From the NCBI RefSeq assembly GCF_035084215.1, contig NC_090337.1:25296001-25360000 (forward strand): a DNA stretch of 64,000 nt. The letters are read 5' to 3'. A program made the position numbers and the translations under genes. The DNA is from Heptranchias perlo (Eukaryota). Positions 3,600 to 58,235 of the stretch are shown here, in pieces (position 1 is the stretch's first letter; every line of letters starts with the position of its first letter). The notes below the pieces were generated by a model that did no database searches, was not told the DNA's origin, and saw nothing but the letters and a program-made list of their open reading frames with translations.

Positions 3600-5065
3600 A
3601 ATGTGGCGGGTACTCTCAGCTGATCAGGGAATCCACATAGATCTGTGAAGGATAGGTCATGTCTGACTAATCTAGTTGGATTTGAGGTGGTCATTAGCAT
3701 GGTGGATAGAGTAGCGTCTATGGATCTTGTCCATGTGAACTTCCAAAAGGCATCTGATAAGGTTCCACACAAGAGATTATTAGCAAAAATAAAAGCACGC
3801 AGAATTGGACGTAACCTTGTGACATGGGTCGGTAATTGGTTGGTAGGTAGGAGACAGAGTGTCTTGATAAAGGGTTCATTCTCTGATTGGCGGGATGCGA
3901 CAGGTGGTGTTCCCCAGGGATCTATATTGGAGCCTCAACTTTTCATCATATGTGTTAATGACTTGGCTGAGGGAATAAAAAGTTGTATATCCAAGTTTGT
4001 AGATGACACTATGTTAGAAGGCACAGTAAATTCTGCAGATAGGAGCAAAAAGTTATATATGGGTAAACTAAGTGAGTGCGCAAAACCATGACAGATGGAG
4101 TTCAATATGAGGACATCCACTTTACGTTTGAGAAAGACAAACCAGCATGATACCAGGGCTTAAAGGATTAAATTGTGAGGGCAGTTTGAATAAACATGGC
4201 TTGAGTTTGGAAGGTAAAATCAAGGTATTTAAAATTATAGAAATTTGATAGAGTAGATACAGAGAAACTATTTTGGGAATGCAGAACAAGAGGGCATTAA
4301 ATTAGAGCTAGGCCATTTAAGAATGAAATTAGGAAGCATTTTTTCCACAAAGGGTCGTGGAAATCTGGAACACTCTCTTCGAAAACTTACTAGAATGGTT
4401 CCAGGGATGAGGGACTTCAGTTATGTGGATAGACTGGAGAAGCTGGGGTTGTTCTCCTTAGAACAGAGAAGGTTGAGAGGAGATTTGATAGATGTGCTCA
4501 AAATTATGAGGGGTCTAGATAGAGAGAAACTGTTACCATTGGCGGAAGGGTCGAGAACTAGAGGACAGATTTAAGGTGATTGGCAAAAGAACCAAAGGCA
4601 ACATGAGGAAAAACATTCTTACACAGCGAGTAGTTGTGATCTGAAATGCAATGCCTGAAAGGGTGATGGAGGTAGATTCATTCATGGCTTTCAAAAGGGA
4701 ATTGGATAAGTACTTGAAGGGAAAAAAATTGCAGGGCTGAAGGGAAAAAAATTGCAGGGCTGAAGGGAAAAAAATTGCAGGGCAACAGGGAAAGGGCAGG
4801 GGGGTGGGACTAGCTGGATTGCTCTTGCAGAGAGCTGGCACTGGCTCGACAGGCCAAATGGCCGCCTCCTGTGCTTCTTTGAAAACACACTGAATGTTGG
4901 GTCAGTTGAAATTTTGAAGACTGAGATTGTTAGATTTTTGTTGGGTAAGGTCAGCAAGAGATGTGGAATTAAGGCAGATAATTGAAGTTGGGGTACAAAT
5001 CAGCCATTATCAATTGAATGGTAGAACAGGCTAGAGAGGCTGATTCGCCCACTCCTGTTCCTATG
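3600..5065 (+). mobile_element. Cluster of decayed CR1 LINE fragments
   Basis: RSCLTNL, FQKASDKVPHKRL, GVPQGSILEP, KFVDDT, LEKLGLFSLEQRRLRGDLI; a second CR1 piece is nested at about 4385-4870. Confidence 0.85.
4715..4783 (+). repeat. 23-bp tandem repeat x3 inside a CR1 3' region
   Basis: (TGAAGGGAAAAAAATTGCAGGGC)x3. Confidence 0.9.
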
Positions 5066-9458: not shown

Positions 9459-10466
9459 GTGAGTGCAGGAAACAACTTTTTTTTCAGATGTCCATTTTAT
9501 ATTTGGTGTCTCCGTACTGATCTAATCCTCGTGGTGGTCTAGAAGTCTACAAGTTTTGAGCTCTGTTTAGTATATACAACAGTCTAAATTCTGCTTTAAG
9601 CCAGCAGAGGTCAGATTGTTGTAGCTTAATAGTTCAGTTGCTTCATTGTTACGTATGATAGAGTTACTGGCTTAAAGCTATATGGCGCTGTTTTGTTTTT
9701 TGAAGTCCTGATTAAAGTGACTCAAGATATAACAATCAGTAGACTGTAGTATTTGGATTTACTTGGAGTAGATCATATAATTGAAATTGGTATGTTGCCT
9801 CAGAGACTTCCCATGGACAATGTTGAGCTGTCCAGTTGGGTATCTGGTTCTCCCCAGCGACGGACTATGAAAATGCAGTGGAATAATATTTGTTGAGGCT
9901 GACAGTGTTACTGACTAGTGTTCAGGTTTTAGAAATAGAATTTGGACAAGTTTCCTAAGTGAGGAAAGGAACGGCTTTACATTCATCATTGTGCTCTCTG
10001 GATACTACAAGGTCACTTCTGGTCCAGCTAAGTTTAGTTTAGTATTAACTGCAACCAGGTATGGTTGGCATGCTTAATAATTACTATATTTTGAAACATT
10101 TTAGAAGCAAACTAGCAGCATCTACTGGATTCTGCTTGTAATGTAGTGGGCAGTTGAGGCAATCATTGATAAAAGGACTCTGACTTGGGGGCTTGTCTGT
10201 TCAAGTCAAGCTGCCTGTCCTCAATTGCACAAAGCAGACACAAATTGCAAAATATGGAAATCCAGTATTTGCTAAGTTTTTATTGTATTATGTATGTTTA
10301 AATAAAATGACCAATAATGGTACTGAATAATGCAGTAGTTTGGCAAGTATATATTTTTCCGTGTAAGTGCAACTTAAATAAATTTTTTCTCATTTGATGG
10401 AAGCATTAAGCTGTTTGTAAATATTTCACTTTATATAATCGTCTTATAATTTTTGTTCTTTTCCAG

Positions 10467-10490
10467 ATGCTGTACCCATCAAGGATTTGA
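10467..10490 (+). CDS. RPL35A: RPL35A last coding exon (MLYPSRI*)
   Basis: TTCCAG acceptor; total CDS 11+153+145+24=333 nt = 110 aa. Confidence 0.95.
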   Translation: MLYPSRI

Positions 10491-10513
10491 AGCACAGCTG
10501 TACATAAATTGAC

Positions 10514-10519
10514 AATAAA
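10514..10519 (+). terminator. RPL35A: RPL35A polyadenylation signal
   Basis: AATAAA 24 nt after the stop codon, followed by a GT/T-rich element. Confidence 0.8.
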
Positions 10520-11609
10520 TAGTAAAATGGTCTAAATTTTGTGTTTTCCTTTGTGTGTGTGTGTATGTTGGCACGGTACGTTGGGTAGTGACAAACACAA
10601 GGGTTTGCATAACTCATGTTGCAAATATGTATGTTTTGTAAATGTTGTTACTAGATAATGTTTAAAATCAAATGATTCTGATAGCTGTTCTGTGTAAGGA
10701 AGCCTGCAATAGATGTGCTTAGGCTTTTGCCTCTTTATTTAACAAGTTAAGAAGTAAAAAGTATACACTGCTCCATTATGTTAGTGGATATTTTTGATCC
10801 TTTTAACTTTGCAATTAATGTGCACAATTGGCTTGCATTTTGGAAAGTTTTCTATGGAAACAGCTAATCACATATGTATTCTTCCATTCTTACAGAAATG
10901 TTATCTATAGGCTATCTGAAAACACCTGTGATCGTGCATCTAGTATGTGAGATGCAATTTGAGGGGAAAGAAAATTTATGGTGGGCTCTTCTAAATTGTA
11001 GCCAAATTTACAAGCAGTTACAATTGCCTTTTGACCTCCAGGAATTTGCAAGCACCTATAAATACCTGACTTTGCCTCTTTCGACCACTTTCTGCAGGAG
11101 TACTTGAATAGTGGCCTTAAAGGGAGAGGGTGGATTAGCTGTCTAAATCCCAGACTACCTGAGCAATGGCATGGGAGATCTGCAAGTGTTGGCAGTGACT
11201 TACCTGCTGGACGGCAAAAATGTTCCCATATAGCCATTAACTCTTCAGCGAGTGATCCAATAACTGCAACCAAGTAATCTGTGCTGATCTAACTGACCTT
11301 AGTGCTTTCTTTTAAAAAAGAAACCTATAAGTGAAGGGCCTCAGCCCACACTGAAATACCTTAGGTAGGCCTTGGTGCCCCCGATGAACCATGGTTCCTG
11401 GTCTGCTGTTCAGTGACTTTTGCTGATGAATGCACATGCGTGAAGGCTTGGTTATACTACCTCTGCCACAGTGGTCTGCTGCCACTCATTAACTATAACC
11501 ATGGGTACAGTGCTGGAGGACTGCTAGTACCTGTGTTTCAGAATTATAGAAAATTTTGGAGGGGTGGTGTTTCTGTCAGCTTTTCTTTACCACTTTGATG
11601 CAGCGATTT

Positions 11610-20399: not shown

Positions 20400-20570
20400 A
20401 AGGGAGCGCCATTCCCCACTGCTTGTGACATCACAAAGAGCAGCGGCACCGCCCCTTTATGTGTTGGCGTACTTGATTGGTCAATGCCTGGCCAGCTGGC
20501 ATTCGGAGAGGCGGAGCTTAGCGGGGATCAGTAACTTTCCGCGGGGGTCTGAGAGAGTGAAGGGCTGAGG
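20400..20570 (+). promoter_or_regulatory. Promoter of the C2orf72-like gene
   Basis: CRE-like TGACATCA at about 20426, GC boxes CCGCCC/GGCGGAG, inverted CCAAT (ATTGG at about 20477), CpG-rich. Confidence 0.55.
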
Positions 20571-21231
20571 ATGGAGGAAGGGGGAGCAGATTTAGATCCA
20601 GACTGGACCGAGAGGGAGTTCCAGCAACTGGTCAAAGCCATTGGAGGCAGAGAGAGCATCTTCCTGATCGGGGAGGTGTGCGAGAGCCGGGACCTGATGT
20701 TTCAGTTCGTTAGTAACATGTTTCCACATTCTGGGGAAGTTTGCAGTAAAATTTCGGACACGGGGAGCAATCAGCAAATGATGGAGCCGCAATGCAAGGA
20801 CTCGGAGACCGACAACGAGCGGGAGTTTCAGGGCTTATTGGATTCTTCTACCAAGGTGACCCACCTGGTTAACGGGAGTAAGGAGCAGAGGCGGATCAAA
20901 GCCCGGCTAATTCTCTTCCTCTTCCACCAGGATTTCATCTGTAACAAGCAGAACGATCTCGTAATCCGAGAGCTTCTGAAGGACGTTCGGCAACGGTCCA
21001 GTTCCTGGGAAGACCTGCCTGCTCTCATCGGGGTGGTCCACGCTGACACTGCTAGCGGGGAGCTGAGCGTCGCCGTCCGCCTTATAGAGTATTACCTGCG
21101 GACAGTCTTTCACCGGCATCCGGGTGAGTGCGTGCAGGCACTTCCCTTCATATCCAACCAGCCAGACTCTATGACAGAGCTGAAAAAGACCACCTGTGTT
21201 GTCCTCCGAGCTGTTTCGAGCGTCACAGCAG
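20571..21231 (+). CDS. C2orf72: C2orf72-like uncharacterised protein, exon 1
   Basis: CpG-rich 220-codon frame (FQQLVKAIGGRESIFLIGE...LILFLF...PALIGVV); phase-1 donor CAG/GTACCT; lies upstream of PSMD1 as human C2orf72 does. Confidence 0.8.
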
Positions 21232-21989
21232 GTACCTAGCAGGACTCACAGCTAATCTGACATTATAGGATTCTCCCTACATGTTATGGAATTGTCTTTG
21301 TTTTTTGGTGTATGTTTTTACCCCCATTGAATGTAGTTTGTCATCAATGTCGTTGTGGCAGGACGCATTAATACTAGTCTGAGCCGAAGATTTCCCGATA
21401 ATTGTCCGACGATCCCAAAAAGGGCGCATAGATGCCCAATAGGAGGCAGAAACATAGAACTATCTAGTGCCGATGTCCCCAAACTTTTTTGTTGTTGACC
21501 CCACTACTGAAATTCATGTTCCTGGCACCCCCTCTCTTTCTAAGAAGCAGTATTTTTGCATAGAACATGAGGATTTTATTTTCTGAGCTAACATTACATC
21601 TTACTTAAGAAAGAAGGCAACAGAAATAGAACAGTACCACTATTATACTACCAAATAAACTTGAACATTTGATGGCTTACATTTGTCACAGTGAGTAGGA
21701 TGAGCCTGTTTGCTAGCTGGTTACGATCTCAGCACTCAGTTGGAGTTAAACTCTTTGCCCCCAGACAAGGTTAGGATCTTTGTTCCTATATAGGGTTAGA
21801 ATCTCGCCCCTCAGCTAGAGTTCGGATCCACGTCCCACGGATAGGCTTAGGATCTCAGTCCCCAGATAGGTGAGATTGACATAGGAACTCTGAAGGAAAG
21901 ACAATAGTCAGTAAGGCAAGAGAAAAATGTAGAGGCTGAAGGAGACTGATACACAGAAGTGAAGGAACAACAATCTGTCCCCTCCCCCC

Positions 21990-39439: not shown

Positions 39440-41255
39440 GCTTCTTCCCATTTCTTCCTCACTCTTTCCCCCCCCCCCCTTTCTTCCTCACTTTCTCCCC
39501 CCCCCCCCCCCTCTTTCTTTCTTCCTCACTTTCTCCCCCCCCCCCTCTTTCTTTCTTCCTCCCCCCCCCTCTTTCTTTCTTCCTCACTTTCTCCCCCCCC
39601 CCCTTCTTTCTTCCTTACTTTCTCCCCCCCCCCTTTCTTTCTTCCTCACTTTCTCCCCCCCCCCTTTCTTTCTTCCTCACTTTCTCCCCCCCCCCTTCTT
39701 TCTTCCTTACTTTCTCCCCCCCCCTTTCTTTCTTCCTCACTTTCTCCCCCCCCCTTTCTTTCTTCCTCACTTTCTCCCCCCCCCCTTCTTTCTTCCTTAC
39801 TTTCTCCCCCCCCCCCTTTCTTTCTTCCTCACTTTCTCCCCCCCCTTTCTTTCTTCCTCACTTTCCCCCCCCCCTTTCTTTCGTCCGCACTTTCTTCCCC
39901 CCCCCTTTCTCTCTTCCTCCCCCCCCCCCTTCTCTCTTCCTCACTTTCTCCCCCCCCTTCTCTCTTCCTCACTTTCTTCCCCCCCTTTCTCTCTTCCTCA
40001 CTTTCTCCCCCCCTTCTCTCTTCCTCCCCCCCCCTTCTCTCTTCCTCACTTTCTCCCCCCCTTCTCTCTTCCTCTCTTCCTCCCCCCCCCTTTCTCTCTT
40101 CCTCCCCCCCCCTTTCTCTCTTCCTCCCCCCCCCCTTTCTCTCTTCCTCCCCCCCCCCCTTTCTCTCTTCCTCCCCCCCCCCCTTTCTCTCTTCCTCCCC
40201 CCCCCCCCCTTTCTCTCTTCCTCCCCCCCCCCTTTCTCTCTTCCTCCCCCCCCCCCTTTCTCTCTTCCTCCCCCCCCCCCTTTCTCTCTTCCTCCCCCCC
40301 CCCCCCTTTCTCTCTTCCTCCCCCCCCCCCCTTCTCTCTTCCTCCCCCCCCCCCCTTTCTCTCTTCCTCCCCCCCCCCCTTTCTCTCTTCCTCCCCCCCC
40401 CCCTTTCTCTCTTCCTCCCCCCCCCTTTCTCTCTTCCTCCCCCCCCTTTCTCTCTTCCTCCCCCCCCCCCCTTTCTCTCTTCCTCCCCCCCCCCTTTTCT
40501 CTCTTCCTCCCCCCCCCCCTTTCTCTCTTCCTCCCCCCCCCCCTTTCTCTCTTCCTCCCCCCCCCCCTTTCTCTCTTCCTCCCCCCCCCCCTTTCTCTCT
40601 TCCTCCCCCCCCCCCCCTTTCTCTCTTCCTCCCCCCCCCCCCCTTTCTCTCTTCCTCCCCCCCCCCCCCTTTCTCTCTTCCTCCCCCCCCCCCCCTTCTC
40701 TCTTCCTCCCCCCCCCCCCCCCTTCTCTCTTCCTCCCCCCCCCCCCCCTTTCTCTCTTCCTCCCCCCCCCCCCCCTTTCTCTCTTCCTCCCCCCCCCCCC
40801 CCTTTCTCTCTTCCTCCCCCCCCCCCCCCCCCTTCCTCTCTTCCTCCCCCCCCCCCCCCCCCTTCCTCTCTTCCTCCCCCCCCCCCCCCCCCTTCCTCTC
40901 TTCCTCCCCCCCCCCCCCCCCCTTCCTCTCTTCCTCCCCCCCCCCCCCCCCCCTTCCTCTCTTCCTCCCCCCCCCCCCCCCCCCTTCCTCTCTTCCTCCC
41001 CCCCCCCCCTTCCTCTCTTCCCCCCCCCCCCCTTCCTCTCTTCCTCCCCCCCCCCCCCCCCCCCCTTCCTCTCTTCCTCCCCCCCCCCCCCCCCCCTTCC
41101 TCTCTTCCTCCCCCCCCCCCCCTTCCTCTCTTCCTCCCCCCCCCCCCCCTTCCTCTCTTCCTCCCCCCCCCCCCCCTTCCTCTCTTCCTCCCCCCCCCCC
41201 CCTTCCTCTCTTCCTCACTTTCTTTCTTTCTTTCTCCCCCCCCCACTTTCTTTCT
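39440..41255 (+). repeat. 1.8-kb polypyrimidine minisatellite (TTTCTCTCTTCCTC + poly-C)
   Basis: Almost pure C/T strand; units of about 20-30 bp with variable C-runs. Confidence 0.97.
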
Positions 41256-44599: not shown

Positions 44600-45130
44600 A
44601 AGTAAGTTAGTATTGGTGAAGGAAGGGAGGGCAGGCGGGCAGGGGACGACAGGAGGAGAGGCGAGGCCCCCCCCCCACCACCCGGGTGCGAGGAGGTTTT
44701 TTTTGTCTGTGGAAAGTCCTGAGTCAGTGCGGGAGCGGCAGCCGGTCCGGGACAAGGAGCGAGACCGACCGATAGACGACAGGGAGAAGCGGCAGCAGTG
44801 AGCGCCTGAACCGCGGCTACAACATGATTACCTCGGCCGGTGAGTGAGGCTGTCTGGCCCGCCTGCTTATTCCACCCCCCCCCCTTCCCCTTCGATCCGG
44901 ACTGAGGGTGAAGAAAGCTTCTGCCGGCTGGGCCCGGACCCCGACCCCGGGAGATCTTGGCCCACTGGCTGATTATCCAACAGCCCAGGTCTCGGCGCGG
45001 CCCGTACGCCGCACATCGGGGGTTAGTTTCTGGCTTTAAATACTTGTGTTCAAGTTGGTAGTTTCCTGGGTCCGCGCAGCTGAGTCACTGAATGAATGAG
45101 GCCCGAGAGCGGGCACTGAAACCCTGACAC
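44600..45130 (+). promoter_or_regulatory. PSMD1: PSMD1 CpG-island promoter with AP-1/ARE motifs
   Basis: GC-rich; TGAGTCA at 44720-44726; GCTGAGTCAC (ARE on - strand) at 45079-45088. Confidence 0.65.
44824..44839 (+). CDS. PSMD1: 26S proteasome non-ATPase regulatory subunit 1 (Rpn2), exon 1 (MITSA)
   Basis: AACATG start context; G/GTGAGT donor. Confidence 0.93.
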
Positions 45131-52395: not shown

Positions 52396-52605
<210 letters not shown>

Positions 52606-52929
52606 TAGCATTCTTTAATTTCCATCTCTATTTACTAACTCTTGTGAATTATTTCATAAAGTTTATTAAAAAATGTGATGCTTTAAATTTGGTATTTATA
52701 GATCCACAGTTGGGTCTTTTTTGTGGATCTTTCTGGGCTATCTTAAACCTGCTTTTGGTGTATTTTTTAACTCTTTGGAAATCTTCAGCTTTTGAAAGAG
52801 TATAACCAAGTTGTCATGGTCTGTTTTTATCTTCCACCACCTGCTCCCCTGGTTGTTGTAATTATATAAGTTTTCTGTTTTAGTTAGTACAAAATGTACT
52901 CTAAACTGTTCACCAATAAATAGCCAGAT

Positions 52930-53105
52930 AATAGGAACATAGGAACAGGAGTAGGCCATTCAGCCCCTCGTGCTTGCTCCGCCATTTGATAAGATCATGG
53001 TTGATCTGTGATCTAACTCCATATACCTGCCTTTGGCCCATATCCCTTAATACCTTTGGTTGCCAAAAAGCTATCTATCTCACATTTAAATTTAGCAATT
53101 GAGCT
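52930..53105 (-). mobile_element. CR1 3'-end fragment
   Basis: ATAGGAACATAGGAACAGGAGTAGGCCATTCAGCCC is the reverse complement of a CR1 tail. Confidence 0.75.
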
Positions 53106-53447
53106 AATGGATTATTACATACAAGAGTTCAGAATTAAATTAGACTGACTGTCAATTTGGATGATGTGCTTGAATGTGCTGTTTTCTTTGTTTTGCCTGT
53201 ATATAATTGGGAATCTTGTTGCCTACATGCATATCATTTTAGTTATTCACAATTAAAAATAACAAACTATTAAGAATTTAATTTAAGATCATTGGAGAGA
53301 TTTAACGTGTTATACTTACAATATGCGCTACACTTGCGCATTCTAATTTCCTTATGAAATTGAGTGCCACTGTAGACATAAGCACTATTATGTACTCTAT
53401 ACATGTCTGCATACGTATAGTGGTGGTCTGACATTTGAAATGGCTTG

Positions 53448-56400
53448 TGTAACAGTGAGAGAGGGATGATATGTGAGCCATAGGCTTTTGAGAGCTCTCT
53501 ATATCTGCTATAGGGGTACAGCTTTAAGAAATTGTATAAAATGTCAGAATGATCTATAAATCTCTAAAGGGAATAAGGTCAATCAGGAACGACTAACTTT
53601 GTAGTTTACGGACCCTACTTGTTCCACAATATCATTTGGGCCCTGCCATTGAGCCACCAGTTTGCTCCCGGTCGTTGGAACCAGAAGCAAAATTTGGTCG
53701 CCCTAACGGAACTGCCTCACCCTGGCCTGCTTATTGTAGTAGATCCATTGGTTTTCTTGGGCCTTTTTCAGGTGATCCCCTACTATAGGAGTGACTATCT
53801 CCACCCTCTCCTTCATTTTCTACCATATTCTGAGAGGGGCTATTCTGTTTCTCCCATTCCTCCCTAATAACATCTAGAAGCCCACAAGGTTACCTCCCAT
53901 AGAGAAGCTCGAAAGGTGAAAACTCTGTGGTGGCCTGTGGAACTTCTCGAATTGCAAACGTTAGGTATAATAAGAAGGCATCCCAGTTCTTGCCAGCCCC
54001 CTCTACTACTTTCTTTAGCATACTTTTCAAAGTTTTATTGAAACGCTCTATCAACCCATCGATCTGGGGATGATATACCAAGGTTCGTTGAGCCTTCATC
54101 TTTAACAATGCACATAGGTCTCCCATCAGTTTGGATATAAACGGAGTCCCCTGATCTGCCGGAAACTCTTTTGGAATTCCTACCCTGAAAACGCCCATAC
54201 CAATTCATTGGCAATGCTTTTTGATGCCATATTCCATAAGGGAATAGCCCCCGGATACCTGGTTGCATATTCAACTATCACTAGAATATACTGATATCCC
54301 TTGGCAGACCTACCCAAAGGCCCCACCAGGTCCATTGCATTTCTTTCGAATGGTACATCGATTATGGGTAGGGGGATCAACAGAGCGTGAAGATGAGGTT
54401 TAGGTACTGCCAATTGACATTCTGGACAGGAATTACAGTACAATTGAACTTCTTTATAAATCCCTGGCCAAAAAAATTGTCGTAAGATTTTTCTCCTGGG
54501 TTTTTTCTATCCTGAGATGCCTGCCCAACAAGTGTTTATGGGCCAGATCAAATACTAGCTGTCACAAGGGTTTTGGAACCAATAGTTGTTCTGTCTCTAC
54601 CCCGTGCTCACTGGCCACCCTCTACAACAAATCATTCTCAATTATATAGTAAGGCCCAGCCCTTTTTAATTTACCTTCCACCAGGTGTCTATTAACTGAT
54701 ACCATTTCGGTTTTTACGTTCTGAAAAGCTGGGTCATTAGCTGGTTCCCATTTAAAATCGGTCATATTTATGGGAAACTCCTTTAGGGAGTCTTTCCTTC
54801 TCCTAAGATGATCCTTTCAGGAACCTTCTCCCTCTGTGTCCGATAGAGGTGCTCTATTAGTGGAAGGAGTCTTAAGTTGATCTCCTACTAAAATAGTTGG
54901 GATCTATTCTTTAGCTCCTCGAGCCTTATCACACCTCTGCTCTCTTAGATTTTCATTTCTTCCCAATCCCCTGAAATGTGTCAGGGTCCTCTAAGGGAAA
55001 ATTTTGAGCAAACTCCATGGGCATATTCTGAACCTTGTTTTTAATGAGGGCTTCAAATTCCGGAAGATCTCTTCCCAGGATCACCAGTTGAGGGAGGCCA
55101 GGGACGACTACGGTGGCAATCTCCTGTCTTTTCCCGACATACTCTAAAGCCACCATAGTGGTGGGGTAATACTGCACATTCCCATGCATGCACCAGACCC
55201 CTGTTTCTGATCCATGAAGTGACTGGGAAGGTCGGACCAGATTGGCGGCTACCAAGGTCACAGTGCTACTGGAATCAGTCAGTGTAGTGACCTCTTTACC
55301 ATTTATCTTTATGGGTTTTAAAAAAAAAATGGGTGGCCTCCACATGGCTCACAGTTTGCACTATGCCAATCATATAATCCTCTCCAGGGACTGAGTTCTG
55401 GTTTCCCAGACTCCAGTCCATAGATTCCCCAGTGTTCGGACATTGTCTTGCAATATGCCCTAACCCATCACAATGGTAACACCCTAACAGCTTATTAGAT
55501 TTAACATTTTTAACTTTATCAAAAATGTTACAATGTCCCTTCACACCTTCTTGCTCCACTTCAGCACCTTCCTTCAGTCTTATCGGGATCTCCGTGGTTC
55601 TTTGAGGTAGGAGGATGCCATAGGGTCCTAGAGGAGACGTCTACTCGATCGCGAACCAGTTCCTTCACTGCCTGATGTCACTCTACTGTGGCAGTCCACT
55701 CCTGGGTGTCTGCCGGCTCTTTGTCCGATTCATCTCCTGACATTCGGGGATAGAGCTCAGATGAACCGGCCCGTGACAGCCAGCTCTACGAACTTTGCCA
55801 GGTTATTTGTCTCAGGCTGCAGCCATTGCCATGCCAGGTGTATCAGGTCATATATCTGTGATCTTGGAGCTTTCCCCACCTCGTAGGTCCAGGCTTGAAA
55901 CCGTGGAGCTCTCACCATGGGGGTTACTCCAGTACAGGCCAGGATTTCCTCCTTCAGCGTCTGGTAATCAGCTGCATCTGCCAGTTCCAAGTCAAAGTAT
56001 GCCTTTTGGATGTCTCCTACTGAAAAAGGAGCCACAATCCCTGCCCACTGTTCTTTTGGCCACTTTTCCTGCTCTGCACATCGTTCGAAGACCAGAAGGT
56101 ACACCTCCTCTTAGTGTCTGGGGTCATCTTTTGCATTACCAAGCTAGGCCGGATAGGCTGCAGGTCTGTCGTCTTGGGTCCTCCCGACGCCAGTCTCTGC
56201 TTCAAATTCTGGATCTCGGCCTCATTTCTTTCCACTGTCACCTTTGTGATCCGATTCATTTCTTGTTGGAGTTCCTGTTGTGCCAATATGGCCTGCATGA
56301 ATGCTCTCCTCATTTCCCCCATGATGGTGGATCTTGGCCTTTCTCAGAGTCCCAAATTCCACTTCTAACACTGTGCAACAAGCTTAAGCAGGCCCAGGAC

Positions 56401-56732
56401 CCAGTGGTCAATTAGTAATGTTCAAAACAAGTGAGGTTTATTCACCCATGGCTGTTTTGTCTTTGAGTGCAGAGATAAAACAGTAACGGCGATTACCCCA
56501 TACTGATTCTTAGCTCCAGCCTCTCCCCAACTGAACCATTTCCCTGTCTTTTGTCTTTCCAGGCTGGAAGTCGTTCCTGATTGACCTTAATTGCCTTTAA
56601 AGATTTCTTATAGATGTACCACCTCGGTCATTCTGACATATTATACAATTTCTTAAAGCTGCACCCCGATAGCGGATACAGACCTCTCAAAAGCCTTTGG
56701 CTCTCATATCGTCCCTCTCTCACACTGTTACA
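53448..56732 (-). mobile_element. Decayed Gmr1-like gypsy LTR retrotransposon (LTR-PBS-gag/SCAN-CCHC-protease-integrase, no RT) with an inverted partial LTR at its 3' end
   Basis: SCAN-like gag 55757-56322, CYHCDGLGHIARQC, LTDSSS protease, integrase (CPECQ, DLVGP, DQGTPF, YHPQIDGLIERFN, WQGP); LTR 56374-56732; PBS-like 56356-56373. Confidence 0.88.
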
Positions 56733-57374
56733 CCCTGGAACATGCTATGTATATTGGGAGGGTATCTTTAGACTCAAATTTTTTGAACCCCAAAATTAAA
56801 AATACCCCAATTAAAATGAATTACGAACTCAGTGCTGAACTAGGACAAAATTCTAGATACAAGATTAAATGCAAGAGATTGAGATCAGAGAGCAAGAGAA
56901 ATTTCAGAGGCTGTGAAATTCACTTCCAGGGTTAGTGGTTGAGGCAGAAACTATACTGACATTCAAGATGAGATTGGATGAAGGGTAAGGAGTTGAAGAC
57001 ATATGGGAACAGGACATGTAAATGTGATAATAGGACTATTTGCTCATGTGGAGGGTAAACACAAACATGGACTGTTGAGCCAATTGGTCTGTTTATGTTG
57101 TAACTCCTATGTATTAAAGCAGCTTGGTATATATTTGTGCCCTCTGATCTAAAGGATGTTACCTCGGGGAGTAGTATGGTTAAATCTATAATAAATGTTC
57201 TACCCTGCCCCAGCACTTGGACTCTATATTAGACCAGTGTGATATTTTCTATTTCGAACACCATCCATGGCTAGCTTTTCTAAGTGATATTGCCATATAG
57301 TACCAAATTAGGAAGTTTGTGCTGTGGGTCCATGCCTGCTAGAAATTGAGTTCCGTACTGTTCATACTTATTTC

Positions 57375-57720
57375 ACAACAGCAACTTGCATTTATATTAC
57401 ACCTTTACTGTAGAAAAATGTCCCACGGTGATTCAGAGGCATGAAGAAAATTGATGCCAAGCCAAAGAAGGAGAATTAGCTGGGGTGACCAAAAGCTTGG
57501 TCAATGAGATGGATTTTGAGGATTAGAGGAATATGGAGGGGTGTAAGGAGGGAATTCCAGAGAGTGGAACTGAGATGGCTGCAAGCATGGCTGTCAGAAA
57601 TAAGGCGAATAAAGGTGGGCTTGCAAAAGAAGCTGGAGTTTGGGAGGGTTTAGTAAGACTGGAGGAGGCTAGAGAGGTAGTGTGGGACAAGGCCATAGAG
57701 GAAATTATTTTGTACTCGCT
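57375..57720 (-). mobile_element. L2-type 3' fragment
   Basis: AACTTGCATTTATA tail and GGGAATTCCAGAG signature. Confidence 0.6.
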
Positions 57721-58029
57721 AGACAAAGGAAATTGAGCTCAGAGGTGAAGGAGGGTATGTTAATCCACTGCACCATCCAGTTACTGAGCTTTCATTTGTC
57801 TTTTTTTCCACTTTCTGTGTTCCCTTGTGAGCAATATTTGTCAGATATTTAAGCTTCAGCGTTTAATTGTTGGAAGACAGTATTTTTGTGAGTTTGATAG
57901 CCATCGTGACATTACAGTATGGCTGCAAGAAGGGATTGGCAACTTCAATTCTTTAATGCATGGCAGTGGGTAGTCTTGATTTGGTTCATGTGACCATTGT
58001 TTAATGAGATTGTCATTTCTTTATTGTAG

Positions 58030-58235
58030 CAAAATGCATTGATCATTACACAAAGCTTCGTGTTGAAAATAGAGATCTACCTGATGGTGAGGAGAAATCT
58101 ATTGACCCTCGATTAGAAGGTATTGTGAATAAGATGTTTCAACGCTGCTTTGATGACCACAAATACAAACAGGCAATTGGCATTGCTCTAGAGACCAGAC
58201 GGCTTGACGTCTTTGAGAAAGTGATTCTTGAATCC
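58030..58235 (+). CDS. PSMD1: PSMD1 exon 5
   Basis: (A)[13 protein letters not shown]...[25 protein letters not shown]. Confidence 0.96.

Follow-up and report, generated by a model that had tools for sequence, protein, structure and literature searches.

A dead, rearranged Gmr1-like Gypsy copy with an inverted LTR end in a vertebrate intron

The 3285-bp element found at 53448-56732 of the window (the whole stretch of 64,000 nucleotides that was analysed) is real: a retroelement of a known kind, present as an apparently unique copy that is rearranged and dead, and no sign of mobility was detected. On the minus strand it starts with TGTAACAG and ends with CTGTTACA, and at 53594 the minus-strand sequence gives way to LTR positions 164 to 1 in reverse complement. 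The best explanation, to which a probability of about 0.55 was given, is that one strand switch during reverse transcription produced a cDNA with two U3 ends, which would have been integrated once and is now dead. The element lies in a host gene with an RPN2_N domain, which we take to be PSMD1. The features of the locus are listed below in window coordinates.

52434..52603, plus strand: RPN2/PSMD1 exon 5' of the element-bearing intron (PF21505 RPN2_N, splice sites)
53443..53447, no strand: left host flank, a possible decayed 5-bp TSD or chance (3/5 match to the right flank)
53448..53594, plus strand: inverted arm of 147 bp, LTR positions 1-164 (from the U3 end, perhaps reaching into R), from alignment to the LTR
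53591..53594, no strand: integrase/inverted LTR junction (the LTR match ends at 53594; other family contigs reach 53589-53591)
53595..54780, minus strand: integrase containing stops and frameshifts, comprising H2C2, the DDE core and half of the C-terminal SH3-like/GPY-F module, namely the first (Pfam, homologs)
55064..55312, minus strand: decayed aspartyl protease (PF13975, PF00077)
55330..56343, minus strand: decayed gag, with an N-terminal part, a SCAN-like capsid at about 55906-55763 and a CCHC knuckle at about 55484-55434 (Pfam, homolog alignment)
56355..56373, minus strand: PBS-like stretch adjoining the LTR, from likeness to the post-LTR stretch of relatives
56374..56732, minus strand: 5' LTR of 359 bp, TG...CA, with AATAAA at LTR position 291 and TATAA at 88 and 121
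56733..56737, no strand: right host flank (3/5 match to the left flank)
58030..58205 (end approximate), plus strand: following RPN2/PSMD1 exon (splice sites)

The DNA of the window is vertebrate, with a cartilaginous fish as the putative host. A Pfam search identified RPN2_N (PF21505, E=6.8e-23) in a spliced gene on the plus strand, with exons in the window near 44825, 50290, 50946, 52434, 58030, 58597 and 59876. The element takes up 3285 bp of the 5426-bp intron at 52604-58029, antisense to the gene, and the exons on either side are intact. LINE remnants, presumably CR1-like, were found around the gene in the window. The exon at 52434-52603 encodes EESRNYAL, where other vertebrates would have a hydrophobic residue at the R, and either a variant or a sequence error could be involved. 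The start exon of PSMD1 is preceded, at a distance of 3.5 kb, by a pyrimidine-rich tandem array of 1.8 kb (39451-41255, period about 24-30), and a host-exon-like open frame of 228 aa on the plus strand at 20553-21239 could, by presumed synteny, be a C2orf72-like gene.

The minus-strand LTR with AATAAA that the first-pass annotation had placed at 56732-56374 was confirmed, and its ends form an imperfect 7-bp terminal inverted repeat with 6/7 positions matching. The PBS-like stretch was compared with those of five Gmr1-like loci (L002, L055, L015, L079 and L081), revealing 12/19, 11/19, 11/19, 9/19 and 8/19 identical positions, respectively. Downstream, Pfam domains followed in the order SCAN (6e-5), zf-CCHC (2e-6), aspartyl protease (4e-5), integrase H2C2 (4e-9) and rve_3 (0.011), with the SCAN and rve_3 matches under the curated cut-offs. 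The SCAN match (PF02023, E=6e-5) reached 23.2 bits against a cut-off of 27 in this decayed copy, with E-values of 4e-17 and 2e-15 in homologs.

A search with the integrase core retrieved 554 proteins at E<=1e-10, of which the best 120 were used for comparisons. The best homologs are SCAN-PR-IN-RT-RH polyproteins, with at most 74% identity over the integrase core piece among these best 120 of 554. They are collinear with the element from gag to 53595, without RT between PR and IN, and 91 of the 120 listed extend below 53640; IN lies ahead of RT in 56 of the 57 listed homologs with both motifs. A SCAN gag and the PR-IN-RT-RH order are described for Gmr1-like Ty3/Gypsy elements (10.1101/2025.03.03.638093; PMC11117352), and the LTRs given for Gmr elements measure 337-518 bp (PMC11117352, Table 2). 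Best hits and domain order thus support the predicted origin from a Gmr1-like Ty3/Gypsy element, as had been proposed, with the SCAN-like gag, the CCHC knuckle, PR followed directly by IN and the 359-bp TG..CA LTR as shared traits.

In contrast with a complete Gmr1-like element, this one has no RT, RNase H, PPT or direct 3' LTR; its integrase is cut in the C-terminal module, and its far end consists of inverted LTR positions 1-164. The earlier claim that RT/RNase H and a direct 3' LTR are missing held throughout the window, where the RT/RNase H part of the closest homolog (residues 931-1448) gave no tblastn match at E<=1, and no other strong match to the LTR was found.

Related loci were collected by an alignment scan that yielded 77 in metagenomes and 46 in genome bins, 123 overall, whereas viral contigs had none; when metagenome contigs were scanned with a single protein, no locus was found either. 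All 123 are distant at the DNA level, the best reaching 66-81% over 59-223 bp of integrase. As a control, the 84 related loci with an integrase core plus 2 kb downstream were surveyed, and RT was found downstream in 73. Of the other 11, seven have RT before IN and four have no RT core match, and a bracketing inverted repeat is absent from all four. In one locus (L004), a Gmr1-like coding region lies inside a 1.2-kb inverted repeat of 94% identity (3858-5031, 10006-11197), with flank pieces repeated at 1203-2028 and RT kept, which looks like a host fold-back arrangement. Loci L078-L122 are eukaryote-type Gypsy/Gmr1-like retrotransposons in bacterial or archaeal genome bins, some with LTRs and TSDs, and are likely host contamination.

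The presence of the junction in reads was followed in four public runs that cover the stretch and come from one sample, probably the assembly source; three of them were compared as contigs at 80% likeness. One 514-bp read-derived contig (53523-54036) spans the junction with 0 differences in 3/3 runs and extends 71 and 442 bp on either side of it, at depths of 12.3, 11.5 and 10.6 compared with 12.6, 11.1 and 10.5 in the unique-flank bin. Therefore, the junction is real. A misjoin of an inverted LTR during assembly is scarcely credible: the three runs share one sample that is probably the assembly source and no listed piece covers the whole element, but the junction is bridged without differences in all three runs, and the arms differ at 11 sites plus five gaps, unlike a misplaced duplicate.

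Position 53636 was covered by 19, 18 and 19 contigs from other family copies among those listed for this sample, and these reach no further than 53589-53590, taking the contig-end values to mean the furthest reach. One listed diverged contig starts at 53591 with its first 12 letters unaligned. Other family copies in the contigs listed thus appear to depart from the element sequence within 5 bp of the junction. Microhomology at the junction would be about 4 nt, and up to 6, because the integrase match overlaps the LTR match that ends at 53594. No second contig across the junction was present among the contigs listed for the one sample. No joint of 53447 to 56733, as expected from an empty site, was seen among the 15 joints listed, and 53108-53447 and 56733-56836 gave no convincing match in the window to a host-repeat copy of such a site. 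The junction is apparently single-copy and one-off. The first-pass annotation had itself held that a unique junction would make this a one-off rearrangement, and the junction looks unique in the contigs listed. Summed contig depth on the arm (53412-53542) was 787-849, about twice that on the matching left LTR part (56556-56817), a poor measure; over positions 1-95, the arm is thus matched by a larger number of family contigs than the left LTR is.

The integrase announced by the annotation is present, with H2C2 and core identified by Pfam, but it is neither complete nor intact. The switch falls inside the C-terminal SH3-like/GPY-F module, with matches to positions 1-18 of 35 in PF22938 and 14-41 of 64 in PF24626. 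A conserved motif ends 20 residues past the cut in 72 of the 72 listed homologs with both motifs, which leaves the integrase about 20 residues short, and the reading frame meets a stop after three codons of the inverted arm. At least 7 frame changes were found in the coding region along the homolog alignment, together with 10 in-frame stops over eight coding pieces; the four pieces between 54918 and 53595 hold 7 of these stops. Decay affects every coding part, and the integrase part has no fewer stops or frame changes than gag; it has not been kept intact. A domesticated integrase gene was ruled out by a frame broken throughout. One family member in UniRef, a frog protein (P0026, 1 of 81 homologs), ends exactly at VNYKV, probably through a stop or the end of a gene model.

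As in Ginger1 transposons, a Gypsy-type integrase lies between inverted ends with TG..CA, and the lengths of these ends are similar. Ginger1 elements are described with 40-270-bp TIRs, 4-bp TSDs of CCGG/CCGT, a YPYY motif, GPY/F and OTU/Ulp1 domains (PMC2836005). The arms, of 147 and 164 bp, fall within the TIR feature (about 40-270 bp, starting TGT). The 4-bp flanks match at 1/4 and are not CCGG/CCGT, and YPYY (Y/F-P-Y/F-Y/F) is absent from all sense frames of the element, where decay could mask one. The C-terminal module is cut instead of holding a complete GPY/F, and gag and PR are kept without OTU/Ulp1 instead of a single transposase ORF with these domains. Overall, the element lacks 4 of the 5 Ginger1 features tested. 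Dispersed copies with the same ends were not found among the contigs listed for the one sample. The element further differs from Ginger1 in retaining gag, PR, PBS and a whole LTR, and in being single-copy and dead.

It is very improbable that the locus is one decayed copy of a mobilised, RT-less family with TIRs, a nascent Ginger-like DNA transposon. The TG..CA ends, an arm length of 147 bp that is covered by the range for Ginger1 TIRs (40-270 bp), the presence of integrase and the absence of RT speak for such a family, and the contig comparison covers the listed contigs only. Against it, the element's own contig is the only one listed that bridges the junction, with the 19, 18 and 19 others stopping at 53589-53590; the integrase is without its last 20 conserved residues and carries 7 stops and several frame changes; YPYY, an added C-terminal domain and a CCGG/CCGT 4-bp TSD are missing; and none of the 84 related loci is RT-less with a bracketing inverted repeat. 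The statement that a retroelement had 'turned into' a TIR-bounded integrase element was therefore overstated, as the element has a dead, truncated integrase, the junction was seen only once among the contigs listed and most Ginger1 features are absent.

An inverted LTR copy at the far end, as had been reported, was corroborated by alignment of the arms (53448-53594, plus, and 56732-56569, minus), in which 135 of 146 columns are identical (92%) with a local score of 178 compared with a maximum of 27 in 500 shuffles. The outer edge of the arm falls exactly on the LTR terminus. Of the 11 substitutions between the arms, five are at sites where the left LTR differs from most other listed family contigs, and a sixth private site of the left LTR falls in a 13-bp gap. 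Among the sites listed, the arm shares 0/5 comparable private sites of the left LTR and is therefore unlikely to be a late copy of it. The two arms look equally old, as would result from parallel decay from about the same time.

Five gaps (2, 2, 13, 3 and 1 bp) were also found between the arms, clustered near the junction, compared with 0.8-1.1 expected from the density of coding frameshifts (P=0.001-0.006, or 0.04-0.11 if counted as three events). Two of them lie in dinucleotide runs, and family LTRs are variable in the same region. The excess of gaps speaks mildly against arms that started out identical.

The annotation had offered a strand switch or auto-integration as the source of the two U3 ends. 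The first is now the leading explanation, and the second is contradicted by a junction in the middle of the LTR. In auto-integration a processed LTR terminus is joined to internal DNA, giving circles (PMC2644782); in the element, LTR position 164 forms the internal junction and non-element DNA adjoins the two termini, by which this route was ruled out. For the strand switch, we infer the following steps, the use of microhomology included. Plus-strand DNA would start at the PPT and copy about 164 nt of the LTR, and its 3' end would then pair over about 4 nt with element RNA, at the part that encodes the integrase C-terminus. Extension as minus strand would proceed through IN, PR, gag and PBS and, after the normal jump, the LTR, and a second plus strand would complete a 3.3-kb duplex that lacks RT/RNase H and carries the U3 tip at either end. 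The family integrase would have inserted this duplex once, into the PSMD1 intron, where the copy, without PPT and 3' R, would be unable to copy itself and has decayed. Co-packaging of two different family RNAs could make the arms differ at birth.

The strand switch is favoured by the arm stopping precisely where the LTR ends, which is what integrase would produce, by the equal age suggested for the arms and by the single aberrant event it takes; complex elements formed by template switching (PMC1950507) and HIV proviruses with inversions (PMC9278108) are precedents for RT accidents that integrate, although not in this two-U3 form. The 3/5 TSD, the excess of arm gaps and the lack of an empty site among the listed joints stand against it, and a microhomology this short would suit repair no less than RT switching. 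No case of integration through two U3 ends was found in the literature searched, outside which most subscription journals lie. For the arm to end at LTR position 1, there must have been either a U3 end made by integrase or a role for the LTR's short terminal inverted repeat.

The latter alternative underlies a local rearrangement of one integrated element, in which a repair or replication template switch would lead from integrase to inverted LTR and on to the original 3' flank via the terminal repeat, or a 3' LTR would flip with a deletion. The 7-bp repeat (6/7) could account for the exact end even if no second U3 att site was involved, and the gaps cluster near the junction. However, two switches or two events are required, and a late copy of the 5' LTR is disfavoured by the private sites (0/5 shared), with the element's own 3' LTR as a possible source. 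This rearrangement, which predicts a TSD just as the strand switch does, is considered improbable.

The match of 3/5 bases between the element flanks was as claimed. The outer ends were examined in 11 of the 123 related loci; L098, L104 and L116 were left out as RT-before-IN and L011 as having no TG/CA ends. Among the seven IN-before-RT loci with both outer ends, a 5-bp TSD was complete (5/5) in four and matched at 4/5 in two, L088 being the miss; in L002, the TSD is 5/5 with the LTR starting at TG. As 6 of 7 relatives have a 5-bp TSD, the fair flank test is 3/5 and not 1/4, and by analogy with these distant relatives the TSD of the element's own family would be 5 bp. A 3/5 match has P=0.045 for a true TSD at 7.5% divergence compared with 0.096 by chance, or about 2:1 against a true TSD. 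The flank match is thus weakly against a single insertion, nearly neutral and not decisive.

Before the TSD length was known, the strand switch had stood level with an origin from two opposite insertions of the same family, each judged slightly short of an even chance. The two copies, adjacent or one in the LTR of the other, would then have lost the stretch between LTR position 165 of one and the integrase of the other through a microhomology-mediated deletion, and this origin is now considered unlikely. It would agree with the lack of a clean TSD and with the excess of arm gaps, and complex plant elements are described as arising mostly from recombination of adjacent insertions, without TSDs (PMC1950507). 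The first 8 nt of the right flank (56733-56740) match the LTR just beyond the junction position at 7/8, a post hoc observation that would fit insertion into a same-family LTR and counts towards this origin; the same 7/8 match occurs in 164 of 15,692 host 8-mers (1%), and it is probably chance. On the other side, two coeval events are required in one small intron of an intact gene, the deletion must spare both exons, the family is low-copy (about 10-25 internal contigs per site), and the 3/5 flank match would itself arise by chance in only 11% of cases. Given intact exons and an intron of 5.4 kb, two independent insertions of a low-copy family are, as a rough inference, a priori unlikely. The odds of the three main readings rest on this kind of rough prior argument, and the strand switch remains the preferred one.

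Integrated products of template switching are described by Sabot and Schulman (2007) in grasses, with the TSD as diagnostic (PMC1950507). These complex LTR insertions share with the element, for which this is proposed, the integration of aberrant RT products as one piece, and differ, as described there, in their direct LTRs and clean TSDs. In HIV-1, 2 proviruses with inversions were reported, 1.3% in each of two classes (PMC9278108); deletions and inversions are described in the part of that source available, and two U3 ends are not. DIRS elements share inverted terminal repeats with the element, but as generally described they have a tyrosine recombinase and RT, compared with a DDE integrase and no RT here, by which a DIRS-like element was ruled out. 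No description of an RT-less Gypsy copy capped by an inverted U3 was found in the literature searched, most subscription journals lying outside it.

Another parallel concerns the origin of Ginger1. According to Bao et al. (2010), the path from LTR element to DNA transposon is unclear, and the TIRs may derive from two LTRs flanking an integrase in opposite orientation (PMC2836005). Their scheme uses a 3' LTR and an upstream insertion, compared with a 5' LTR and an inverted U3 in the element, and this hypothetical route is close to the two insertions followed by deletion. The element may be said to resemble the hypothesised step, but as a dead end. That it is a natural fossil of the missing first Gypsy-to-Ginger-like step, that such units may recur, and that it was perhaps remobilised as DNA at least once, has a very slim chance of being right; on that reading, because IN precedes RT in Gmr1-like elements, a single plus-strand switch at the IN/RT border would remove RT and give an integrase-bearing unit with TIRs.

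A single dead copy with a clipped integrase is raw material only and shows no transition, and the origin of Ginger1 TIRs from LTRs is treated as an open, hypothetical step in the source consulted (PMC2836005). The locus does show that a genome can contain the geometry of an integrase flanked by two LTR tips that face outward, from which RT has been removed. The IN-before-RT order of Gmr1-like elements makes this Ginger-like geometry reachable by one event, and a genome-wide count of such products would give the rate at which RT error makes TIR-like ends.
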